Origin: Nitrosopumilus sp.
GTDB taxonomy: Archaea; Thermoproteota; Nitrososphaeria; Nitrososphaerales; Nitrosopumilaceae
NCBI GenBank assembly: GCA_965205675.1
Contig: OZ242186.1
Span: forward strand, 1,664,001 to 1,728,000
Direction of reading: 5' to 3'
Length of the DNA stretch: 64,000 nt
Part shown: positions 1-64,000 of the stretch, in pieces
Layout: each line of letters opens with the position of its first letter
How positions within the stretch are numbered: position 1 is the first letter of the stretch
Position numbers and translations under genes: made by a program
Notes under the pieces: model-generated
What the model saw: only the letters and a program-made list of their open reading frames with translations
Told to the model about the DNA's origin: nothing
The model's database searches: none

Positions 1-420
1 TCGCACCAAAGATTTTTGGTTTATGGAATGGTGACAGATGGCAATCAAAGTTTTTTTAGATCGTATGAAAAATTTAATTCAATTGCATTTATGGATTATT
101 TGGAAGCAGCTCGTAGAAAATTTGGAAAAATATTTGTTATCGTCGATAGAGCACCGCAACACAAAGCTAATGATGTAAAAAAATATCTGCGTAAAAACAA
201 AGATGTCAAACTGGCATATCTTCCGAGAGGTTCCCCGCATTTGAGTATGATTGAAGAGGTTTGGAGACAGTGCAAACATGTTAATGTTGAATCAGAATTT
301 TATGAATCTATTCATGAGATGAGGCATACAGTTATGGAATATTTTAGAACGCACAAATTTAATTTGAATATGTATTATTTTGCAAGAACAGTAAATTGAA
401 AAGACTTATGATCTGGGGTA
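1..420 (+). mobile_element. IS630-family transposase, C-terminal DDE part (ORF 16..399; element runs off the window start)
   Basis: IVDRAPQHK and YLPRGSPHLSMIEEVWR motifs; clearly similar to ORF 30492..30941. Confidence 0.8.
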
Positions 421-430
421 TATATGGTAC

Positions 431-646
431 ATGGTAACTATACACTCCGCTCTTTTTTATTTTAGACTAATTTTTGGATTTGTAGGAATTATTATCTTAG
501 GTGTAGGTTCTATATTTTTAGCCTGGCAATTATTTGAAAATCGCTTCTTTGATCTCGATTTGGTTGTGTTGGGGTTATTTATTGCCAACACATCCATACT
601 TTGTGCAATTATTTGGAAATTATTAAAAAAATCCAGAGCAAAATAA
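431..646 (+). CDS. small hypothetical membrane protein (2 TM helices)
   Basis: 71-aa ATG ORF with two hydrophobic stretches and a basic C-terminus. Confidence 0.5.
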   Translation: MVTIHSALFYFRLIFGFVGIIILGVGSIFLAWQLFENRFFDLDLVVLGLFIANTSILCAIIWKLLKKSRAK

Positions 647-868
647 ATATGACATTATGATATTATTTACATCCATCACAAAGTTAAGGATATTTTAAAA
701 AATTAACCTTTGTTTATGCGATCATCATCATTTCTAAAATCTTTATAAAATATTCAGTACTTGGGAAAGTAACTACCTGACATCTTCCAAATAGTATTGG
801 GATTTTATTCCACTAAAGAAATCAATGATGACAATCTCAAAGATGCACTTGAGAATTTCAATTGTAAT

Positions 869-1080
869 TATCCATGTGAATTGTTTTTATACATTTCCTC
901 TCTTTCTATACATCAGGGCATGGCTTTCGCTAGAGAATGGTTTCAATCAAAAGATGGCAGACATGTATCCATACGAGACTATTCTCTCAATGCTATCTTC
1001 ATCCTAGTTAGGATTGTTCGCAGTTATTAGACGAGGCCTTGTCCCTCAATAATTACAACGCGACTTGCAGTCCTAACTAT
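869..1080 (-). ncRNA. putative bridge/seek RNA in the 3' non-coding end of IS110 element 1
   Basis: Nested stems TAGTTAGGA/TCCTAACTA, TCGC/GCGA and GAGG/CCTC around an internal loop; scaffold conserved in two other copies; loop matches the insertion flank. Confidence 0.65.
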
Positions 1081-2187
1081 AATTTTGTACAAATTCTCTC
1101 CTCTCCTTTAACATCCAATAAATCACCCTCAGGATCTTTGATGCACCAGCTACTGCAGCTTTGGATGATCCTCTTTTCTTTTTAATGCGATTGTAAAATT
1201 TTGTAATGTCACTATCCTTGGCATGAATTGCATGAGTGTGTATGCATTCTGTTAGAACCCATCTCAATGTCATGCTTCCCCTTTTTGTTATTCTGCCATG
1301 GTGTATTGTATCTGCAGAGTTTCTAACTGATGGTACAACTCCTGCATATGCACACAGTTTGTGGGAATCATTGAATCTCTCAATATCTGCAATCTCTGAT
1401 GCAATGACAAGCGAAGAATAATGCCCAATTCCCGGAATCGAGTTTATCAAAATTGCATCAGGATTAACTTTTACAGCAGCATACACTTTGGAATTAATCT
1501 CTGCAATCTGTAAATTAAGGTGGCTGATTTGTTGCAAGAATCCGTCTATTCTGTAATCTCCTAGTGCCTTGAGTCTTCTGTTGTATGTTTCAGTGAATGT
1601 AACTCCTGGAATCCTGATTCCTTCCTGTAACAATATTCCATGAACTGAATTCTTGACAGATGTTCTCCATTGGATTAGTTTTTTCCTATATCTTACAAGC
1701 TGTCTTTGTTGTACAATCTTTTTGTCTGGAACATAACATGTGGCAATGTATCCTCCTCGTAAAAGATCTGCCAATATCTTGGCATCAATCTTGTCTGTTT
1801 TCTTTTTTGATGTAGCAATTGCCTTTGTCAAATATGGGTTTGAGAGTGTGACGTTTTTGTATCCCAAAGTATCTGTGAGAAATCGATACGTGTCATACCA
1901 GACTGATGAGGATTCCATTACAATATTTGCAGAAATTGGTATTTTTGCAAAATGCTTTTTTATGGATTCATGCGTGTTATCCACTTTGTCGTTTTGTAAT
2001 ACTTTGCCTGCATCATCCATTTATTACTTGAAGAAACTTCTTGTGCAGGTCAATGCCCACAAACATGCCTTTCTTTGGATTTTTTCTAATCTGTTTGTTT
2101 GTAATCTTTTTTGGAGCCGAGTATTTACGAACCTTGGAACTAGATTCATTTTTTATGCTATCTGATTTCCTTGCTTTCTTATTCACA

Positions 2188-2421
2188 TATCCATGTGAAT
2201 CCCTTTTAACTATTGTCGGTATTTTTGCCATATTAATTACAGCTTACGCTAATACACTCATACTTTCAATCACAGATGAAACCAGACACATATCCATTCG
2301 GGGTTCTCCCCCAGTACCATCTTCATCCATTTATTAGGTGAAACCGCGGTTATAGTTTCGAGGTATTATGCATCCTCAATGTGAAAACGCGGCCAAACTC
2401 CTAACTGTAATGTTTTACAAA
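2188..2421 (-). ncRNA. putative bridge/seek RNA of IS110 element 2
   Basis: Same stem scaffold (CCGCG/CGCGG, GAGG/CCTC) as 869..1080 with different loop sequences that match this element's own junctions. Confidence 0.65.
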
Positions 2422-3518
2422 TTATTGATGACATTGAATAAATTCTCTCCTCTCTTTTAGCATCCAATAAATGACACGCAATAACTTTGATGCAGCAGCA
2501 ACTGCTGCCTTTGAGGTCCCTCTCTTTTTCTTAATGCGATTATAAAATTTTGTAATGTCGCTATCTGGTGCGTATCTAACATGTGCATGAATTGCCTCCA
2601 CTAGCAACCATCTTAGCATGGTGCTTCCTCTCTTTGTAATTCTTCCGTGATGTATTGTATCTGCAGAATTTCTCACCGATGGAACAATCCCTGCATATGC
2701 ACATAACTTGTGAGAATTTGAAAATCTACTAATCTCTGCAATTTCTGAGAATATGCTCAATGCAGTGTATGGTCCAACTCCAGGTATTGATGTCAAAATA
2801 CACACATCAGGATTATCATTTACCATGCGACGTATCATGGAATCTATCTTTGCAACCTCCTTTTTGTGAAATTTTATGCTTTGTAGGTACGAATCTATTC
2901 TATAACTCTCCAATTTTCCAAGTGCACGTATGTGTTCTGAGGAAAATGGTGTTGCTTTGATATGGATTCCCTCCTGTAGTGTAATACCATGTATGGAATT
3001 CTTCATCTTTACAATGATGCGCACAATCTTGTGTCGATGTCTTACAAGCTGTCTGTATTGCACAATTGTGTGATCTGGCACAAATGATTCTGCAATGTAT
3101 CCCTCCTCGTAGCAAATTTGCAAGATGGTACGCATCAATTTTATCAGTCTTTTTGAGTGATGATGCTATTATCTTTGTGTTGTATGGATTAGATAGTATA
3201 ACATCAAGATGTAATTTGTCTGTCATGTGTCTATAAAGGCCATACCAGACAGATGATGACTCTAAAACATATTTTGCGTTCTTTGGAATTTTGGATGTAA
3301 TTTTGCTAATAGCAGAAAAATCACTGGAAATCTTTTTGTTAAATAATAATTTGCCAATCTCATCTACTGCTGCCACCTGTACAGAGTTCTTGTGAACATC
3401 CAATCCTACAAACATCAAATATTTTTTTTCAGGAAGGGTAGTGTGTTTGTTTGCATTTCTTACTTTCTTGATACGAATGCAAGTACCATCTAATTTCCTA
3501 GCTGATTTTGGCACATAT
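2188..3518 (-). mobile_element. IS110/IS1111-family element 2 (transposase 2422..3514, +1 frameshift near 3100)
   Basis: MFVGLDVHK, KTDKIDA, IPGVG and RNSA motifs; right end TATCCATGTGAAT is the same as in element 1, with the same 54-nt spacing to a GCTTWCGCTA block. Confidence 0.85.
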
Positions 3519-4768
3519 GGTTATAGTTATTGGATTTGTGTGATTAATAGAACAAATATTTCCCAACGTACAATTTGCAATAATCCATGTGTTAAACAAA
3601 ATCAAAGGATAGAAAAAATACAAAAACAGGACAGTCGGATTGACACTGCATGTCCTTGGTCTGAATTTACCAACACATGCATAACCTGTCTCTATTCCCA
3701 CCTTCTGCGATACTGGTCCTAGATTTGCCAAATGTTTTTTGATATCTCTGCGCTTTTGATATTTGTTGCAAAAACCAGATACTGGTCTGTGGGATTTGAT
3801 TTTGTAGGTTTTGGATTTGGCAAGATAACTAGATTAAATGATTCAACATGACCAGACCCTGAATGAATCCTGTACTCAGATATTGATTTACGGTTCCCCT
3901 CAACATATTGTATTATTGCCTTTTTGATTTCAGGTGTCTTTCTTGCCGGCATGATGAAATGTGTGTTGGTTTTGCTTTAGTTCATGAATTGTTCCAGTTG
4001 AGAAAAACTCTCTATCCAACAGAACTTGTTTTGTTGCAATGTTGTTTCTGGTGACATCGCCAAATAATTTACGCACGATATCTGCTTTAGAGTTGTTTTT
4101 TCTAATTGGTACACGCCAATTTGTGCCCTACATGATTTCTCTACACATTGAATTGTTCCATACCCTTCAAACGTATCAGTGCCATTTTTGGGTCTTGATT
4201 TTATCAGATATTGTGAATCTGTTTTGTCATACCTTGGGATAATGTGTTTGTCAATTGCAACAGTTACTGGATGATTCAGCATTCCCAATTTCTTTAGGTG
4301 TGTAATTGTTTGGTCAATTCCATCAGATAATGCAACAATCATTTTCTCTTGTGGTATTTTTGCAATCTGCTTTCTAATCCAAGAGCCTGATGAAATGACA
4401 CATTCAGTCCTTATCTTCAGTTTATTTGCAGTTGATTCAGAATAACAGTTACCAAGACAACATTCCATGATGAAATGATGAATGTCCTCTGAATTGTATA
4501 TGGCATTACTTTTTTGTGAGCAAGAAAACAACAATGTTGTGCACATTATTTTAGCAATATTTGCAAATACTTGAATTGTTGAATTTCTAATGTGTGCAAA
4601 ATCAAAATTATGATTCACATTTGATGGAGCAGCATGCCTCCATCAAGCTTTTTCTATCCAAATTTGTGGCGTTGTTGATCAAATGATTGTTAGTTTGTGA
4701 TCTAAATTGGATTATTTTCCCAAGTACTGGTATAGAATATGGGACAAGATAAAGGCTCAGTTGGGGTA

Positions 4769-4842
4769 TGGGCCCGAAGGGCTTCGATCCCTTGGCTCAC
4801 CGGTTATGAGCCGGTTACTCTACCAAGCTGAGTTACGGGCCC
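4769..4842 (-). tRNA. tRNA with CAU anticodon, most likely tRNA-Ile2 (elongator Met not excluded)
   Basis: Cloverleaf GGGCCCG...CGGGCCC-A, anticodon loop CTCATAA; GGGCCC acceptor typical of archaeal tRNA-Ile and lacks the initiator A1-U72 pair. Confidence 0.85.
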
Positions 4843-4883
4843 TAAAGAAAGGAATTCTTTCTCAAGTATAAAATGTTATGAGA

Positions 4884-5516
4884 TCAACAATATTCTTCGT
4901 AGCAACTATCAAGCAACAAATTTTGTGCTGACATTGATTTATCTGCAATTGCAATCAAGTTACTAGAATCAACAGAAGATTGTTCCAAGATATTTCTCCA
5001 AGACGCTGCATGTCTAATGTCAGCTTCTGTGTGAAGTTTAAAGTATTCTGTAGCTTCATTATTTGTCATTCCATAAAATTCTGCCAAACCGTCAAGTTTT
5101 GTTTGGCTAATTTTTGGGATTTCTTTTTCAAATGCATACATGGCACATGCGCCACCATCAAAAGTATTCATTAGTTGAGTTAGATCATATACAGCTTTTT
5201 GAGTTTTAGCCGTTCCAGCATATGAAGTCAATTCTTCTTCAGGTATTCCAAGCTTACAAGCAAAATTAATCCATGGTTTGATATGATCAGATTCTTCTTG
5301 TTGATTTTCAACTAGTTCACTAGTTACTGTTTCAGGAGATTTTGCAATAATTGGAATCATAAAAGAAGGAACTGCTTTTACAAGTTGAAAGTATTCTTTA
5401 GAATAACCTCCAAGAGATTCCTGAGTTAATTTTCCACCAGACCACATTTGGTAAAATGGATGTTTTAGTAAACTTTTTTCTTCAATCATTTCATCAATTT
5501 TCTGTATTATATTCAT
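4884..5516 (-). CDS. TenA/PqqC/CADD-like heme-oxygenase-fold protein
   Basis: LLKHPFYQMW, EESDH and YFKLHTEADIRH motifs. Confidence 0.8.
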   Translation of the reverse strand: MNIIQKIDEMIEEKSLLKHPFYQMWSGGKLTQESLGGYSKEYFQLVKAVPSFMIPIIAKSPETVTSELVENQQEESDHIKPWINFACKLGIPEEELTSYAGTAKTQKAVYDLTQLMNTFDGGACAMYAFEKEIPKISQTKLDGLAEFYGMTNNEATEYFKLHTEADIRHAASWRNILEQSSVDSSNLIAIADKSMSAQNLLLDSCYEEYC

Positions 5517-5595
5517 GATTCATCTCAAGTATGCCAATAAAAAAATCTTTGTGGTTTACAAAAGATTTTATGGTCATAAAAAATAATTTTCGTGG

Positions 5596-5671
5596 GTTCC
5601 AGTGGTGTAGACCGGTCAAGCATTTTGCCCTTTCAAGGCAAAGATCCCGGGTTCAAATCCCGGCTGGAGCA
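5596..5671 (+). tRNA. tRNA-Glu(UUC)
   Basis: Acceptor GTTCCAG/CTGGAGC, anticodon arm TTGCC-CTTTCAA-GGCAA, T-loop GGTTCAAATCC. Confidence 0.95.
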
Positions 5672-5701
5672 CTAAGATTTATTTACTTATGATAAAGTTT
5701 T

Positions 5702-6568
5702 TTGATCAAGCTCATCTTGGACCGTAAAAATATCGAGATTAATCCTTTACTTGAAACATATGGCAAATATATTCAACGAATCGATCAAGCTTTAGAAAAT
5801 GAACTTGGAATCTATTCTGAATCCGAGTTTATTGAACCTCTAAAATACTCCTTAGAAGGAGGAAAACGAATTAGACCAATTATTTTGAATTTAGCAGCTG
5901 AAAGTGTAGGTAAAATTGATGAAAATATACTTTCAGCTTCATGTGCTGTTGAATTTCTTCATATGGAATCAATTATTCATGATGATATTATCGATGACGA
6001 AATCATGAGAAGACAGAAAGAACCATTTCATATCAAATACGGGTACAACACAAGTGTATTAACAGGAGATTTTGTTTTAGGATTAATTCTTGCAATATCA
6101 TCCAGATTAGATAATGCTAGAATCACAAAAGATCTGGCAACTACGGCAATGCTAATGAGTGAGGGTGAAATGATTGAGGGCAGATTAGAAACAAGTGAAG
6201 ATGTAACATTTGATGATTATCTAAAAGTAATTGAATACAAGACTGCTGTAGCATTTCAAGTTGCAGCTAGAATAGGTGCAATAATTGCAAATGGGACTGA
6301 AGAACAAATTGAAGCATTAACTGAATATGGGAAAAATCTTGGAATTGCATATCAAATAAGAGATGACTTGTTAGATTGGAAAAATGAAGATAAATTATTT
6401 AATCTATTGATAAAGAAAAGTTCTGATCCTAGAGATGTCTTTAACAAGATGGAAGAATTACTAAAAGAGTATTCAGAAAAAGCAAGAACAGGTTTGAGAA
6501 AAATTCCAGACAGTGATGCAAAGATAAATCTGGATAATCTAATTAAATTTACTTTGTTTAAGGCATAA
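5702..6568 (+). CDS. polyprenyl (geranylgeranyl) diphosphate synthase
   Basis: GGKRIRP, IIHDDIIDD (FARM), KT and YQIRDD (SARM) motifs; true start may be slightly downstream. Confidence 0.9.
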   Translation: MIKLILDRKNIEINPLLETYGKYIQRIDQALENELGIYSESEFIEPLKYSLEGGKRIRPIILNLAAESVGKIDENILSASCAVEFLHMESIIHDDIIDDEIMRRQKEPFHIKYGYNTSVLTGDFVLGLILAISSRLDNARITKDLATTAMLMSEGEMIEGRLETSEDVTFDDYLKVIEYKTAVAFQVAARIGAIIANGTEEQIEALTEYGKNLGIAYQIRDDLLDWKNEDKLFNLLIKKSSDPRDVFNKMEELLKEYSEKARTGLRKIPDSDAKINLDNLIKFTLFKA

Positions 6569-38560: not shown

Positions 38561-39361
38561 ATGGACACAATAGAAATTCTTCGTGAAGCTTCAAACAGAA
38601 TTTATGCAAATGTAAAAGATCTTGCAGGAACAGATGATGCTGCAGGAGATTTTGGTGTTGGAGCCGGTGGAGATATTTCAAGAAACATAGACATTGTTGC
38701 TGAGAACACAGTCTTAGATTATCTTAAAGAGATTGACTTTGAATGTGTTGTATTAGGAGAAGAATGTGGACGAGTAGAATTATCAAATAATCCAAAAGGA
38801 TTTATCATAATGGATGCAATAGACGGTTCTGCTAATGCAGTAAGAGGAGTTCCATTTTTCTGTAGTTCCTTAGCATTTGCAACTAAAAATAAATTAAGTT
38901 CAATTACAGATGGTGTAATCACAAATCTTTCAAATGGTGAAATGTATTGGGCATCAAAAAATAAGGGTGCATTTTTTAATAATAAACAAATCAAAGTTCA
39001 CAAAAAAGATCCAATCTATAAAATAGTTGGAATTAACACATCAGGATCATCTCTTGAATTGATGAAAAAATTACATCCGATTTTTGAAAATCATAATCAT
39101 ACAAGACATTTTGGTGCAAATGCACTAGAAATGGCAATATTTGCAAGAGGATTAATGGATATTTTTATTGATCTAAGAGATAAAATTAGAATTCAAGATA
39201 TTGCAGCAGGATATGTAATTGTCAAAGAAGCAGGAGGTTTGCTATTAGATGCAGATCTGAATCCGCTTGATGCAGATCTAAGCTATGAGACAAAAGTTTC
39301 TTTTATCGCAGCGGCAAACCAAGAAATTCTTGATGAAATAATGTCGCAGATCAACAAATGA
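38561..39361 (+). CDS. inositol monophosphatase / FBPase family protein
   Basis: GEE, DAIDGSAN and DIAAG motifs. Confidence 0.9.
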   Translation: MDTIEILREASNRIYANVKDLAGTDDAAGDFGVGAGGDISRNIDIVAENTVLDYLKEIDFECVVLGEECGRVELSNNPKGFIIMDAIDGSANAVRGVPFFCSSLAFATKNKLSSITDGVITNLSNGEMYWASKNKGAFFNNKQIKVHKKDPIYKIVGINTSGSSLELMKKLHPIFENHNHTRHFGANALEMAIFARGLMDIFIDLRDKIRIQDIAAGYVIVKEAGGLLLDADLNPLDADLSYETKVSFIAAANQEILDEIMSQINK

Positions 39362-56439: not shown

Positions 56440-57132
56440 TATCCATGTGAATTGTTTTTATACATTTTCTCTATTTCTAAACATTAGGGCATAGCTTTCG
56501 CTAAAGAAGAATTACAATCAAAAGATGCGGACATGTATCCATACGAGACTATTCTCTCAATGCTATCTTCATCCTAGTTAGGATTATTCGCAGTTATCAG
56601 ACGAGGCTTGTCCCTCATAAATTCTAACGCGACTTGCAGTCCTAACTATAATGTTCCACAAATTCTCCCCTCTCCTTTAACATCCAATAAATCCCCCTCA
56701 GAATTTTTGATGCGCCAGCTACTGCAGCTTTGGATGAACCTCTTTTCTTTTTAATGCTATTGTAAAATTTTGTAATGCCGCTATGGCAGTATAACAAAAC
56801 GAGGAAGCATGACACTGCGATGGGTTCTAACAGAATGTGTTCACACCCATGCAATACATGCCAAGAATGGTGTATTATATCTGCAGAATTTCTAACGGAT
56901 GGAACAACACCTGCATATGCACATAATTTGTGGGAATCGTTGAATCTTTCAATATCTGCAATTTCTGATGCAATAACAAGCGAAGAATAATGCCCAATTC
57001 CTAGAATCGAGTTTATTAAAATTGCATCTGGGTTGCACTTTACAGTAGCATACACTTTGGAATTAATCTCTGCAATTTGCAGATTAAGATGGTTAATCTG
57101 TTGTAGAAATCCGTCTATTCTGTAATCTCCTA
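56440..57132 (-). mobile_element. truncated IS110 element 3 (close relative of element 1) retaining its 3' non-coding/bridge-RNA end (56440..56650)
   Basis: High nucleotide similarity to 869..1562; internal 82-bp inversion. Confidence 0.85.
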
Positions 57133-63527: not shown

Positions 63528-64000
63528 ATGATCACAATTATCGGATCTGGGAAAGTAGGTGGAGATGCAGCGTTATTTTCAGCACTAAAGCGATTAGATG
63601 ATCAAATTTTATTATTAGATGTAGCTGAGGGTCTTCCACAAGGAGAAGCAATGGACATTAATCATATGCTATCAGAGCAAGGAATTGATGTTGAAGTAAA
63701 AGGTTCTAATGATTTTGCAGACATGAGGGGTTCAGATGTTGTAGTGGTAGTAGCAGGTTCTGGAAGAAAACCAGGAATGACAAGAATGGATCTTTTAAAA
63801 ATTAATGCATCAATAGTAAAGAGTGTAGTAGAAAATGTAAAAAAATATGCAGATAATTCCATGATTATTCCGGTTACTAATCCACTAGATCCAATGACAT
63901 ACATCACTTACAAAGTCTCAGGATTTGACAGAAGCAGGGTTTTCGGTATGGGAGGAATGCTAGATTTATCAAGATTTAGACAATTTATTCATGAAGCAAC
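63528..64000 (+). CDS. mdh: malate dehydrogenase (LDH-like), 5' part, runs off the window
   Basis: Manual translation [11 protein letters not shown]...[13 protein letters not shown]...VTNPLD...LDLSRF. Confidence 0.92.

Follow-up and report, generated by a model that had tools for sequence, protein, structure and literature searches.

Some insertion sequences (IS) of the IS110 family are known to insert specifically into other transposons' ends. IS4321 and IS5075, studied by Partridge and Hall in 2003, reportedly target the terminal repeats of Tn21-family transposons, and IS1383 of Pseudomonas putida H, from the 2001 work of Muller et al., is said to have the inverted repeats of IS1384 as its specific target. 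Here we describe a comparable locus in a 64,000-nucleotide (nt) stretch of a Nitrosopumilus genome (contig OZ242186.1, positions 1,664,001 to 1,728,000; hereafter the window). Between positions 755 and 4729 of the window lie three nested mobile elements with all genes on the minus strand, namely an ISH3-like outer element and two IS110-family siblings, E1 and E2. As judged from the element boundaries, E2 is within the left end of E1, and E1 is within the ISH3-like element. We put at roughly 0.8 the probability that E2 is an IS1111-type member of the IS110 family whose bridge or seek RNA carries a target loop programmed against the conserved subterminal left end of its siblings (AAC[T/C]ATA^TGTGAATAA).

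Like E2, IS4321 and IS5075 are of the IS1111 type, have subterminal inverted repeats and insert in a site- and orientation-specific manner in another transposon's end. Their hosts, however, are unrelated bacterial Tn3-family transposons, whereas the host of E2 is a sibling in an archaeon, struck in the family's own left end, and hybrids are formed. IS1383 also resembles E2 as an IS110-family element aimed at the ends of another insertion sequence, although the guide RNA was not known at the time of its report and one is predicted for E2. The target logo of IS4321 is mentioned in the available part of PMC11187229. Among the seekRNA and bridge RNA systems (ISEc11, ISPa11 and ISKpn4; IS621), the IS1111 type shares with the present elements a downstream RNA in which the top-strand match comes first, as far as the accessible text of PMC11187229 and PMC11208160 goes; these systems were experimentally tested and, in the same text, target REP, attC or similar, whereas the RNAs here are predicted only. 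ISPpu9 and ssr9, like the nest, are IS110-family modules that move alone or together, the small module using the element's transposase (PMC12288879, available part); in that source, however, what rides along is a small RNA gene adjacent to the transposase gene, whereas E2 is a complete sibling element aimed at its host's end. What looks new here is the targeting of a conserved left end within the same family, the occurrence in an archaeon, the retention of the host tip and the recombinant offspring. A literature search, with subscription journals and supplements outside its range, found neither an IS110-family element targeting a sibling's end nor these archaeal elements, and the target tables of PMC11187229 and PMC11208160 may hold cases.

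E2 and the left ends of its siblings

The window's genome (G000) is a single contig of 2.01 Mb, and two other Nitrosopumilus genomes are referred to as G201 and G202. Contigs from four public sequencing runs (X1, X2, X4 and X6) were compared with the window, and statements about the runs cover the contigs listed. A first-pass annotation of the window had claimed a three-layer nest in which E2 is RNA-guided into the end of a sister IS110 element and would either disable that element or hitch-hike on it. This observation is partly confirmed as a whole, and its core inference is supported by the comparisons given below.

E1 and E2 are classified in the IS1111 type of the IS110 family, with the RNA region 3' of the gene and the inverted repeats subterminal. 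Minus-strand open reading frames (ORFs) at 1073-2020, 2422-3138 and 2900-3514 match PF01548 and PF02371, as does the protein of a third sibling, E3; the DEDD (RuvC-like) domain and the C-terminal PF02371 domain are both present in E1, in the pieces of E2 and in E3. The NCBIfam model 'IS110 family RNA-guided transposase' (NF033542, cut-off 140 bits) scores E1 at 228.8 bits, with a second score of 250.5 bits. The GTG start codon is 6 nt away from the first base of the element, and the gene is followed on its 3' side by noncoding DNA of ~200 nt in E1 (872-1072) and ~230 nt in E2 (2191-2421). The subterminal inverted repeats are ATGTGAA/TTCACAT (7 bp) in E1, bordered externally by CTAT on the left and GG on the right, and ATGTG/CACAT in E2. 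A true target duplication is absent, and a short core, ATAA for E1 and ATA for E2, overlaps both junctions. A noncoding region downstream of the gene and subterminal inverted repeats are given as marks of the IS1111 group in the available text of PMC11187229. E1 and E2, arranged head to tail, are about 75% identical over the best-conserved stretch.

Full-length E1 occurs ten times in G000 at 99-100% identity, five copies being joined to E2 and five free. The free copies (the five full-length ones and further fragments) start ATAA-CTATATGTGAATAAG and occupy target sites of the form C[C/T]AATAA-TTA[C/T]A. Every E2+E1 pair is bordered by E1-type target halves, which implies that E1 was inserted first. 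The E1 transposase gene has a 2-nt deletion in 8 of the 10 copies; the other two encode 371 amino acids (aa). A 693-nt 3' fragment of an E1-like element, 84% identical and with its own right end, lies elsewhere in the window (56440-57132; G000:1720440-1721132).

Uninterrupted E1 copies, which the first-pass annotation had proposed as a check, also correct one of its details. The left end of E1 that it had restored by removing E2, ATAACTATAACCATATGTGAATAAG, is off by 6 nt, because E2 contributes the ACC, and one of the ATA copies is the crossover triplet in its repeated form; six free E1 ends that follow ATAACT read ATAACT-ATATGTGAATAAG. Intact copies of E1 indeed do not begin with ATAACTATAACC, an outcome that the annotation had named as telling against it, yet it is the boundary that is corrected and the phenomenon stays. 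The placement of E2 is CTATA^TGTGAA, between CTATA and TGTGAATAAG, with ATA at both junctions; its true target is ATAACT-ATA-TGTGAATAAG, and the insertion is 5 nt inside the host's left end. The 5 nt to the left of E2 are CTATA where the host is E1 and CCATA where the host is E3, and for this reason they are assigned to the host; the notion that CTATA is part of E2 was rejected on the same ground. Also rejected was an insertion of E1 beside E2, since the free E1 sites and E1's own loop define another target.

All nine E2 right ends in G000 are followed by ATA+TGTGAATAA, eight of them running on as E1 and one as E3 (953070-954404). E3 has 58% protein identity to E1, and its left end, gTAA-CCATATGTGAATAAAC, is one mismatch from E2's programme. 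The 17 left ends of E2 in G000 all follow a sibling tip (12 AACTATA, 2 AACCATA and 3 with an extra ACCATA). The sequence ATGTGAATAA is present at 48 sites in G000, of which 16 are E1-type (8 occupied) and 5 are E3-type (1 occupied); none of the 27 G000 sites in other left context is occupied (18 in an unrelated repeat, 9 scattered). The unrelated repeat, at 18 places in G000 (e.g. 94909, 742905 and window 43356, which is G000:1707356), starts ...GGTAATTACAC-ATGTGAATAAAAAATACAAC. Extra ACCATA units are directly to the left of E2 at 63651, 566155 and 1407702 in G000 and at L191 and L199 in G201. Such a unit would be the expected remnant of an E2 inserted in an E2 left end (ACC-ATA-TGTGCC), the tandem having then collapsed by recombination.

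A protein-based scan of one genome per species gave 80 loci with 60 RNA modules (59 distinct), and the E2-type target loop was found in the modules of two genomes only. A search for the pattern of the 3' side of the E2 loop gave 9, 3, 1, 0 and 0 copies in G000, G201, G202, G203 and G204, respectively. All 13 elements with an E2-type loop are in sibling left ends, in equal orientation and position, and their right ends adjoin the interior of a sibling left end in 9/9 cases in G000, 3/3 in G201 and 1/1 in G202; whether other copies of E2 sit in IS110 left ends was a check that the first-pass annotation had proposed. The three in G201 (L175, L179 and L183) are 98-99% identical to E2 over 1257 nt and adjoin E1-type left-end interiors. 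They have an E3-like terminal stretch, an E3-like 3' side of the donor loop (see below) and the right end CACATAG, and in an X4 contig an E3-like right end of this G201 type stands beside an E1 left end. By comparison of these modules, the E3-like donor loop and right end in the G201 lineage of E2 are an apparent case of module exchange between siblings. The G202 element, 88-89% identical to E2 and with an internal deletion, adjoins the left end of an E3-like host, whose target loop is a different one and matches the flank of that host; in the 5' side of the G202 guest's loop (UAUUCACAUU), one base is changed and the match is lengthened to 9 nt. A DNA search with E2 in 200 other genomes of the family returned relatives of 65-70% identity only, with no close E2 among them. 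The 3' loop pattern had one match in 400 other genomes of the family, which is the G202 place, and two metagenome scans gave no match to the E2 loop.

Could these positions descend from a single old accidental nest, copied passively through composite moves, duplication, homologous recombination or gene conversion, with the loop match as a leftover? The five E2-joined E1 copies in G000 share 6 variants in their first 237 nt that the five free copies lack, three composites have a left flank in common, and chimeric flanks bear witness to frequent recombination between copies, all of which favours such an origin. The shared variants would fit composites spreading as units, gene conversion being the alternative. 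Nevertheless, E2 is at the homologous position in three hosts (E1, E3 and the G202 host), and the 5-9 nt of shared left-junction sequence are, in our judgement, not long enough to support homologous recombination. Between the E2 copy in E3 and that of the window there are 3 differences in 1336 alignment columns, the E2-adjacent E1 fragments at 39249 and 62322 are another E1 variant, and G202 keeps the target loop with a change that improves the match. On balance, passive copying is an unlikely source of the pattern.

The transposase gene of E2 is split into ORFs of 204 + 238 aa in 8 of the 8 uninterrupted G000 copies by an extra G, which at window position 3101 lies within a G run. This G is missing from all eight G201 copies, which are intact, and from the X1, X2 and X4 contigs; a ninth E2 copy, also without it, has a 363-aa ORF once its insert is removed in silico. 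The distribution is what gives some ground to the idea that the nest, or the frameshift of E2, is an assembly artefact of a repeat-rich genome. The nest recurs, however, at five places in G000 and in two other assemblies, so that only the single G could be an artefact; as an account of the nest, an assembly artefact is highly improbable. Either the assembly has a homopolymer error at the extra G, or E2 in the G000 strain requires a helper. The ninth copy, the one E2 in G000 that lacks the extra G, belongs to a four-layer nest elsewhere in the genome (G000:C1:441794-444227): it lies in an E1 left end and is itself split by a 1098-bp element with TACT[T/C][C/T]CTAAC inverted repeats and 2-bp duplications (TA or CA; TA at this copy), of which G000 has at least eight near-identical copies.

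Predicted guide RNAs and the flanks they match

By folding, the regions 3' of the gene in E1 and E2 form two stem-loops, both containing a small hairpin enclosed by an internal loop. In an alignment of 13 sequences, drawing on 65-70%-identical relatives from ten further genomes in the family, 23 consensus pairs were found, of which 12 show compensatory changes; the stems are conserved and the loop sequences differ between elements. A scan of positions 1-6000 against Rfam 15 gave only tRNAs and chance-level matches, without a bridge-RNA family.

For the first loop, the 5' side, once reverse-complemented, corresponds to the right flank of the element, and the 3' side matches the left junction. 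This rule was scored over 16 positions in 11 elements with both junctions readable, 108 non-self pairs serving for comparison. The mean match of a first loop to its own flanks was 14.36 of 16, as against 9.30 for non-self pairs (sd 1.5, n = 108), and own flanks scored best in 11/11 elements, with one tie between two copies of one family. The loop that in E2 matches a sibling's end is the loop that matches ordinary flanks in all 11 related elements, and is the target-binding loop of the predicted RNA. In these RNAs, the top-strand match is 5' of the bottom-strand match. IS1111-type seekRNAs have the top-strand match first and the RNA downstream of the gene in the available text of PMC11187229, and the two target matches of IS621 are in the reverse order of the IS1111 type in that of PMC11208160.

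To illustrate, the reverse complement of the 5' side of the E1 target loop is AATAATTACAA, identical to the right flank, and the 3' side, CUAAUAACU, matches the left junction, its left programme being C[U]AAUAA. The first-pass annotation had pointed to two guide-like strands of E2, AACUAUAACC and UUUUCACAUU, and both are found in its RNA region, on the 3' and 5' sides of the target loop, respectively (minus strand, Table 1); the reverse complement of the latter is AAUGUGAAAA. On the uninterrupted left end of E1, AACTATATGTGAA, the two segments of E2 cover AACTATA + ATGTGAA and adjoin each other at the site of insertion. In E2, the 3' side ends in ACC, which matches the bases at the start of E2 itself; in E1, CU plays the equivalent part.

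The second loop is read as the donor loop. Its 3' side tracks the right end of the element (AUGGAUA with ...CATGGATA, AUAGAUA with ...CATAGATA), and its 5' side is the complement of the bases with which the left end begins (AUGG/CCAT, and AUAG/CTAT in E1). This loop offers another way into a sibling: in donor-side ('half-match') recombination, a circle of E2 would join the sibling left end via its donor-binding loop rather than its target loop. Sibling left ends are near-identical to that of E2 (CCATATGTG / CTATATGTG), and donor-arm recognition alone can drive IS621 recombination and off-target insertion, according to the available text of a preprint (10.64898/2026.08.31.748434). An exchange at the core would, however, yield ...CACATGG-ATAA-CTATATGTGAA and leave the host's left end whole, whereas the exchange actually seen lies 5 nt deeper, precisely at the meeting point of the two target-loop segments of E2. 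Moreover, G201 elements with an equal left end and a different target loop are absent from sibling ends. This route is accordingly quite improbable, and programming of the target loop against sibling ends is preferred.

Two further motifs accompany the predicted RNAs. A same-sense box 25-32 nt into the left ends (about 3485-3495 in E2, about 2150-2160 in E1) lies within the opening codons of the gene and repeats the sequence found on the 5' side of the element's own donor loop (AGATGGTAC; AGATAGCAT in E1; GATGGTTG in G019; GATGGTAG in G059). This box was considered as the main donor determinant and set aside, as its self and non-self scores (8.33 and 7.46) are weakly separated and the G201 hybrids described below carry mismatched boxes; the outer CTAT/CCAT tip is favoured over it in this role. 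The second motif is an octamer of A and T only (TATAAAAA, TTTAAAAA, TTTATAAA or similar), which in most of the 14 elements compared starts 19-21 nt ahead of the right end (E1 at about 880-900, E2 at about 2200-2215, and 12 relatives). Across a circle junction, the octamer would fall 29-31 nt upstream of the GTG that opens the transposase frame, itself 6 nt inside the left end; archaeal TATA boxes that drive leaderless mRNAs have this spacing. Within the nest of E2 and E1, by hand count, the spacing of the octamer to the E1 GTG is about 5-6 nt shorter.

Hybrid elements and a proposed mechanism

Five elements in G201 combine the left end and transposase gene of E2 (95-99% identical, 1097 nt) with RNA modules of E1 type. 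They have three different target loops, ordinary right flanks and five distinct left flanks, and the right flanks fit the elements' own guides in at least two of the five. Their left junction reads ATAA-CTATA-ACCATATGTGCC, two of them having an extra ACCATA, and their E1-type donor loop (AGAUAGCAU) matches the kept CTAT tip. A similar hybrid is present in G000 at 754380-755689. Elements of this kind would be the product expected from recombination between guest and host in the nest. Since the hybrids lie at ordinary sites, the target loop, and not the left end or the transposase, sets the location; since they occupy five left flanks, the 5-nt tip of the host together with the E2 end appears usable as a left end. 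The nested left end thus appears to stay mobile. Of the two fates that the first-pass annotation had offered for the host, hitch-hiking is favoured and disabling is not, as the 5-nt tip is kept and composite left ends occur at five G201 sites.

The mechanism we propose runs as follows. The transposase, together with the RNA encoded just 3' of its gene, would excise E2 as a circle. One guide segment would pair with the bottom strand to the left of the crossover and the other with the top strand to the right of it, and strand exchange would take place within ATA, 5 nt inside the left end of the host. The host would retain its outer tip (core + CTAT), the part apparently read by its own donor loop, and the subterminal repeat of E2 would then be 6 nt further in. 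Because the tip is kept and the E2 repeat stands in this place, the nest may still be movable as a unit, with E2 riding along. Because host and guest are head to tail and about 70-75% identical, they may recombine, which would generate single-length hybrids with new combinations of left end, transposase and guide module.

The anatomy of the elements, their site specificity, the guide-to-flank rule and its conservation are directly established. Several points weigh against the reading of E2 as an element programmed for sibling ends. We infer RNA expression, circle formation, the exact crossover and the movement of composites as units from sequence, and no circle junction appears in the run contigs listed. 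All eight uninterrupted copies of E2 in the G000 assembly carry the frameshifted transposase gene. Single-sequence folds are no stabler than shuffles (z = -0.05 for E2 and -0.78 for E1), so that the RNA structure is drawn from covariation alone. The guide matches of E2 are short, 7 nt + 7 nt on the uninterrupted target, and the register of its 5' side is 1-2 nt off that of E1, while being equal in E3 and two G044 copies. Two of the five G201 hybrids have a 5' guide that is mismatched to their own right flank. In an X6 contig, an E2-like right end is followed by ATAT and sequence that is unrecognised as an E1 or E3 left end (30 letters visible). Finally, the copies are not independent, given that two of the three composites with a common left flank share both flanks; the firm minimum of independent cases is three host types in three genomes.

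A bolder account, which we offer as tentative and rather doubtful, would be that this lineage turned a programmable target loop on its own family's left end, entering immediately inward of the few bases read by the host's donor loop, so that the host stays mobile and carries the guest. Head-to-tail pairs would shuffle modules, making nesting an engine that re-programmes bridge/seek RNAs, and the TATA-like box would drive a leaderless mRNA only across a circle or nest junction, as an archaeal junction promoter.

The outer element, its surroundings and implications

The coordinates of the three layers are collected in Table 1. As the first-pass annotation had claimed, the nest has outer inverted repeats and two IS110-family genes; the genes lie on the minus strand, and the outer repeats are 18 nt long and 94% complementary. 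The transposase of the outer element is in three ORF pieces (3977-4618, 3719-3952 and 3498-3731), which gave no family match in a profile search of the window pieces. An intact relative in the same genome, 66% identical, encodes 398 aa and matches the NCBIfam ISH3 model NF033541 along almost its full length with 137 bits (E 6.6e-40), which falls short of the cut-off of 225 bits, and also Pfam DDE_Tnp_1 (2.7e-08). A target duplication is absent around the window copy (ATATT vs GTATA), and a 5-bp duplication surrounds 2/5 inspected relatives.

The annotation had further stated that removal of 869..3527 restores the ISH3-like reading frame, and this is borne out: cutting these 2659 nt out (equivalently 868..3526 or 872..3530, on account of the repeated ATAA) fuses ...NHTNPI with ITIEILKCIFE...EDVR* in frame. 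X2 and X4 contigs with related copies of the outer element have the identical joint, passing from 867 to 3527 with 2659 nt skipped and 4 letters in common, and an X1 contig passes from 871 directly into the other side of the nest. On the minus strand, the empty site in the run contigs is CCAATAATTACAA. The uninterrupted ISH3 site, which the annotation had suggested looking for, is also seen in intact 66%-identical relatives, which read ...NHKPIISIEILK... across the site of the nest.

Table 1. Window coordinates of the nested elements and their parts
Feature	Position	Strand	Remarks
Outer ISH3-like insertion sequence (layer 1)	755..4729	-	transposase gene split by nest, also frameshifted
Left terminal inverted repeat, outer element	755..772	.	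inverted-repeat pair
Right terminal inverted repeat, outer element	4712..4729	.	inverted-repeat pair
E1 (layer 2), left-end interior (TGTGAATAAG...) to right end (...TTCACATGG)	872..2187	-	ends set by free copies
ATAA core copy at E1 right junction (target/donor overlap)	868..871	-	ATAA common to both E1 junctions; 4 shared letters at run-contig joint
E1 guide RNA region	944..1078	-	target loop 5' side 1048-1058, 3' side 1022-1032; donor loop about 958-1004
E1 transposase gene	1073..2231	-	broken by 2-nt deletion near 2013-2031; ORFs 72 + 315 aa
E1 outer left tip CT+ATA, severed from E1 by E2	3522..3526	-	free E1 ATAA-CTATA-TGTGAA vs window ATAA-CTATA-ACCATATGTGCC
ATAA core copy at E1 left junction	3527..3530	-	free E1 copies, run-contig joint
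E2 (layer 3), ACCATATGTGCC...GGGATTCACATGG	2191..3521	-	8 full-length copies + fragments in G000
ATA copy at E2 right junction	2188..2190	-	ATA common to both E2 junctions and free E1 left end
E2 guide RNA region	2269..2405	-	target loop 5' side 2378-2387 (UUUUCACAUU), hairpin 2360-2377, 3' side 2348-2359 (GAAACUAUAACC); donor loop about 2282-2328
E2 transposase gene	2422..3514	-	two overlapping ORFs owing to one extra G at about 3101

Around the nest, the window begins with the 3' part of a DDE_3 (IS630-like) transposase gene that is cut by the window start (1-399; Pfam PF13358, E 2.7e-18). Two tRNA genes follow the nest, at 4769-4842 on the minus strand and 5596-5671 on the plus strand, the end of the outer element being 40 nt from the first.

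Bridge/seek RNA recombinases are being developed into programmable tools for genome writing, and natural cases reveal what their guides evolve to hit. The elements described here provide an archaeal IS1111-type set with readable guide-to-target rules and more than 10 different natural programmes. They also include a lineage that targets its relatives, as well as natural guide swaps in keeping with the rule, and they suggest a possible route of module exchange. A Nitrosopumilus genome is the most IS-rich archaeon surveyed, at 14.95%, in the available text of PMC13343696, and nesting of this kind helps explain the IS-rich, nest-rich genomes of some Nitrosopumilus. If hitch-hiking holds true, the targeting of sibling ends would be a safe-harbour strategy, not sabotage.

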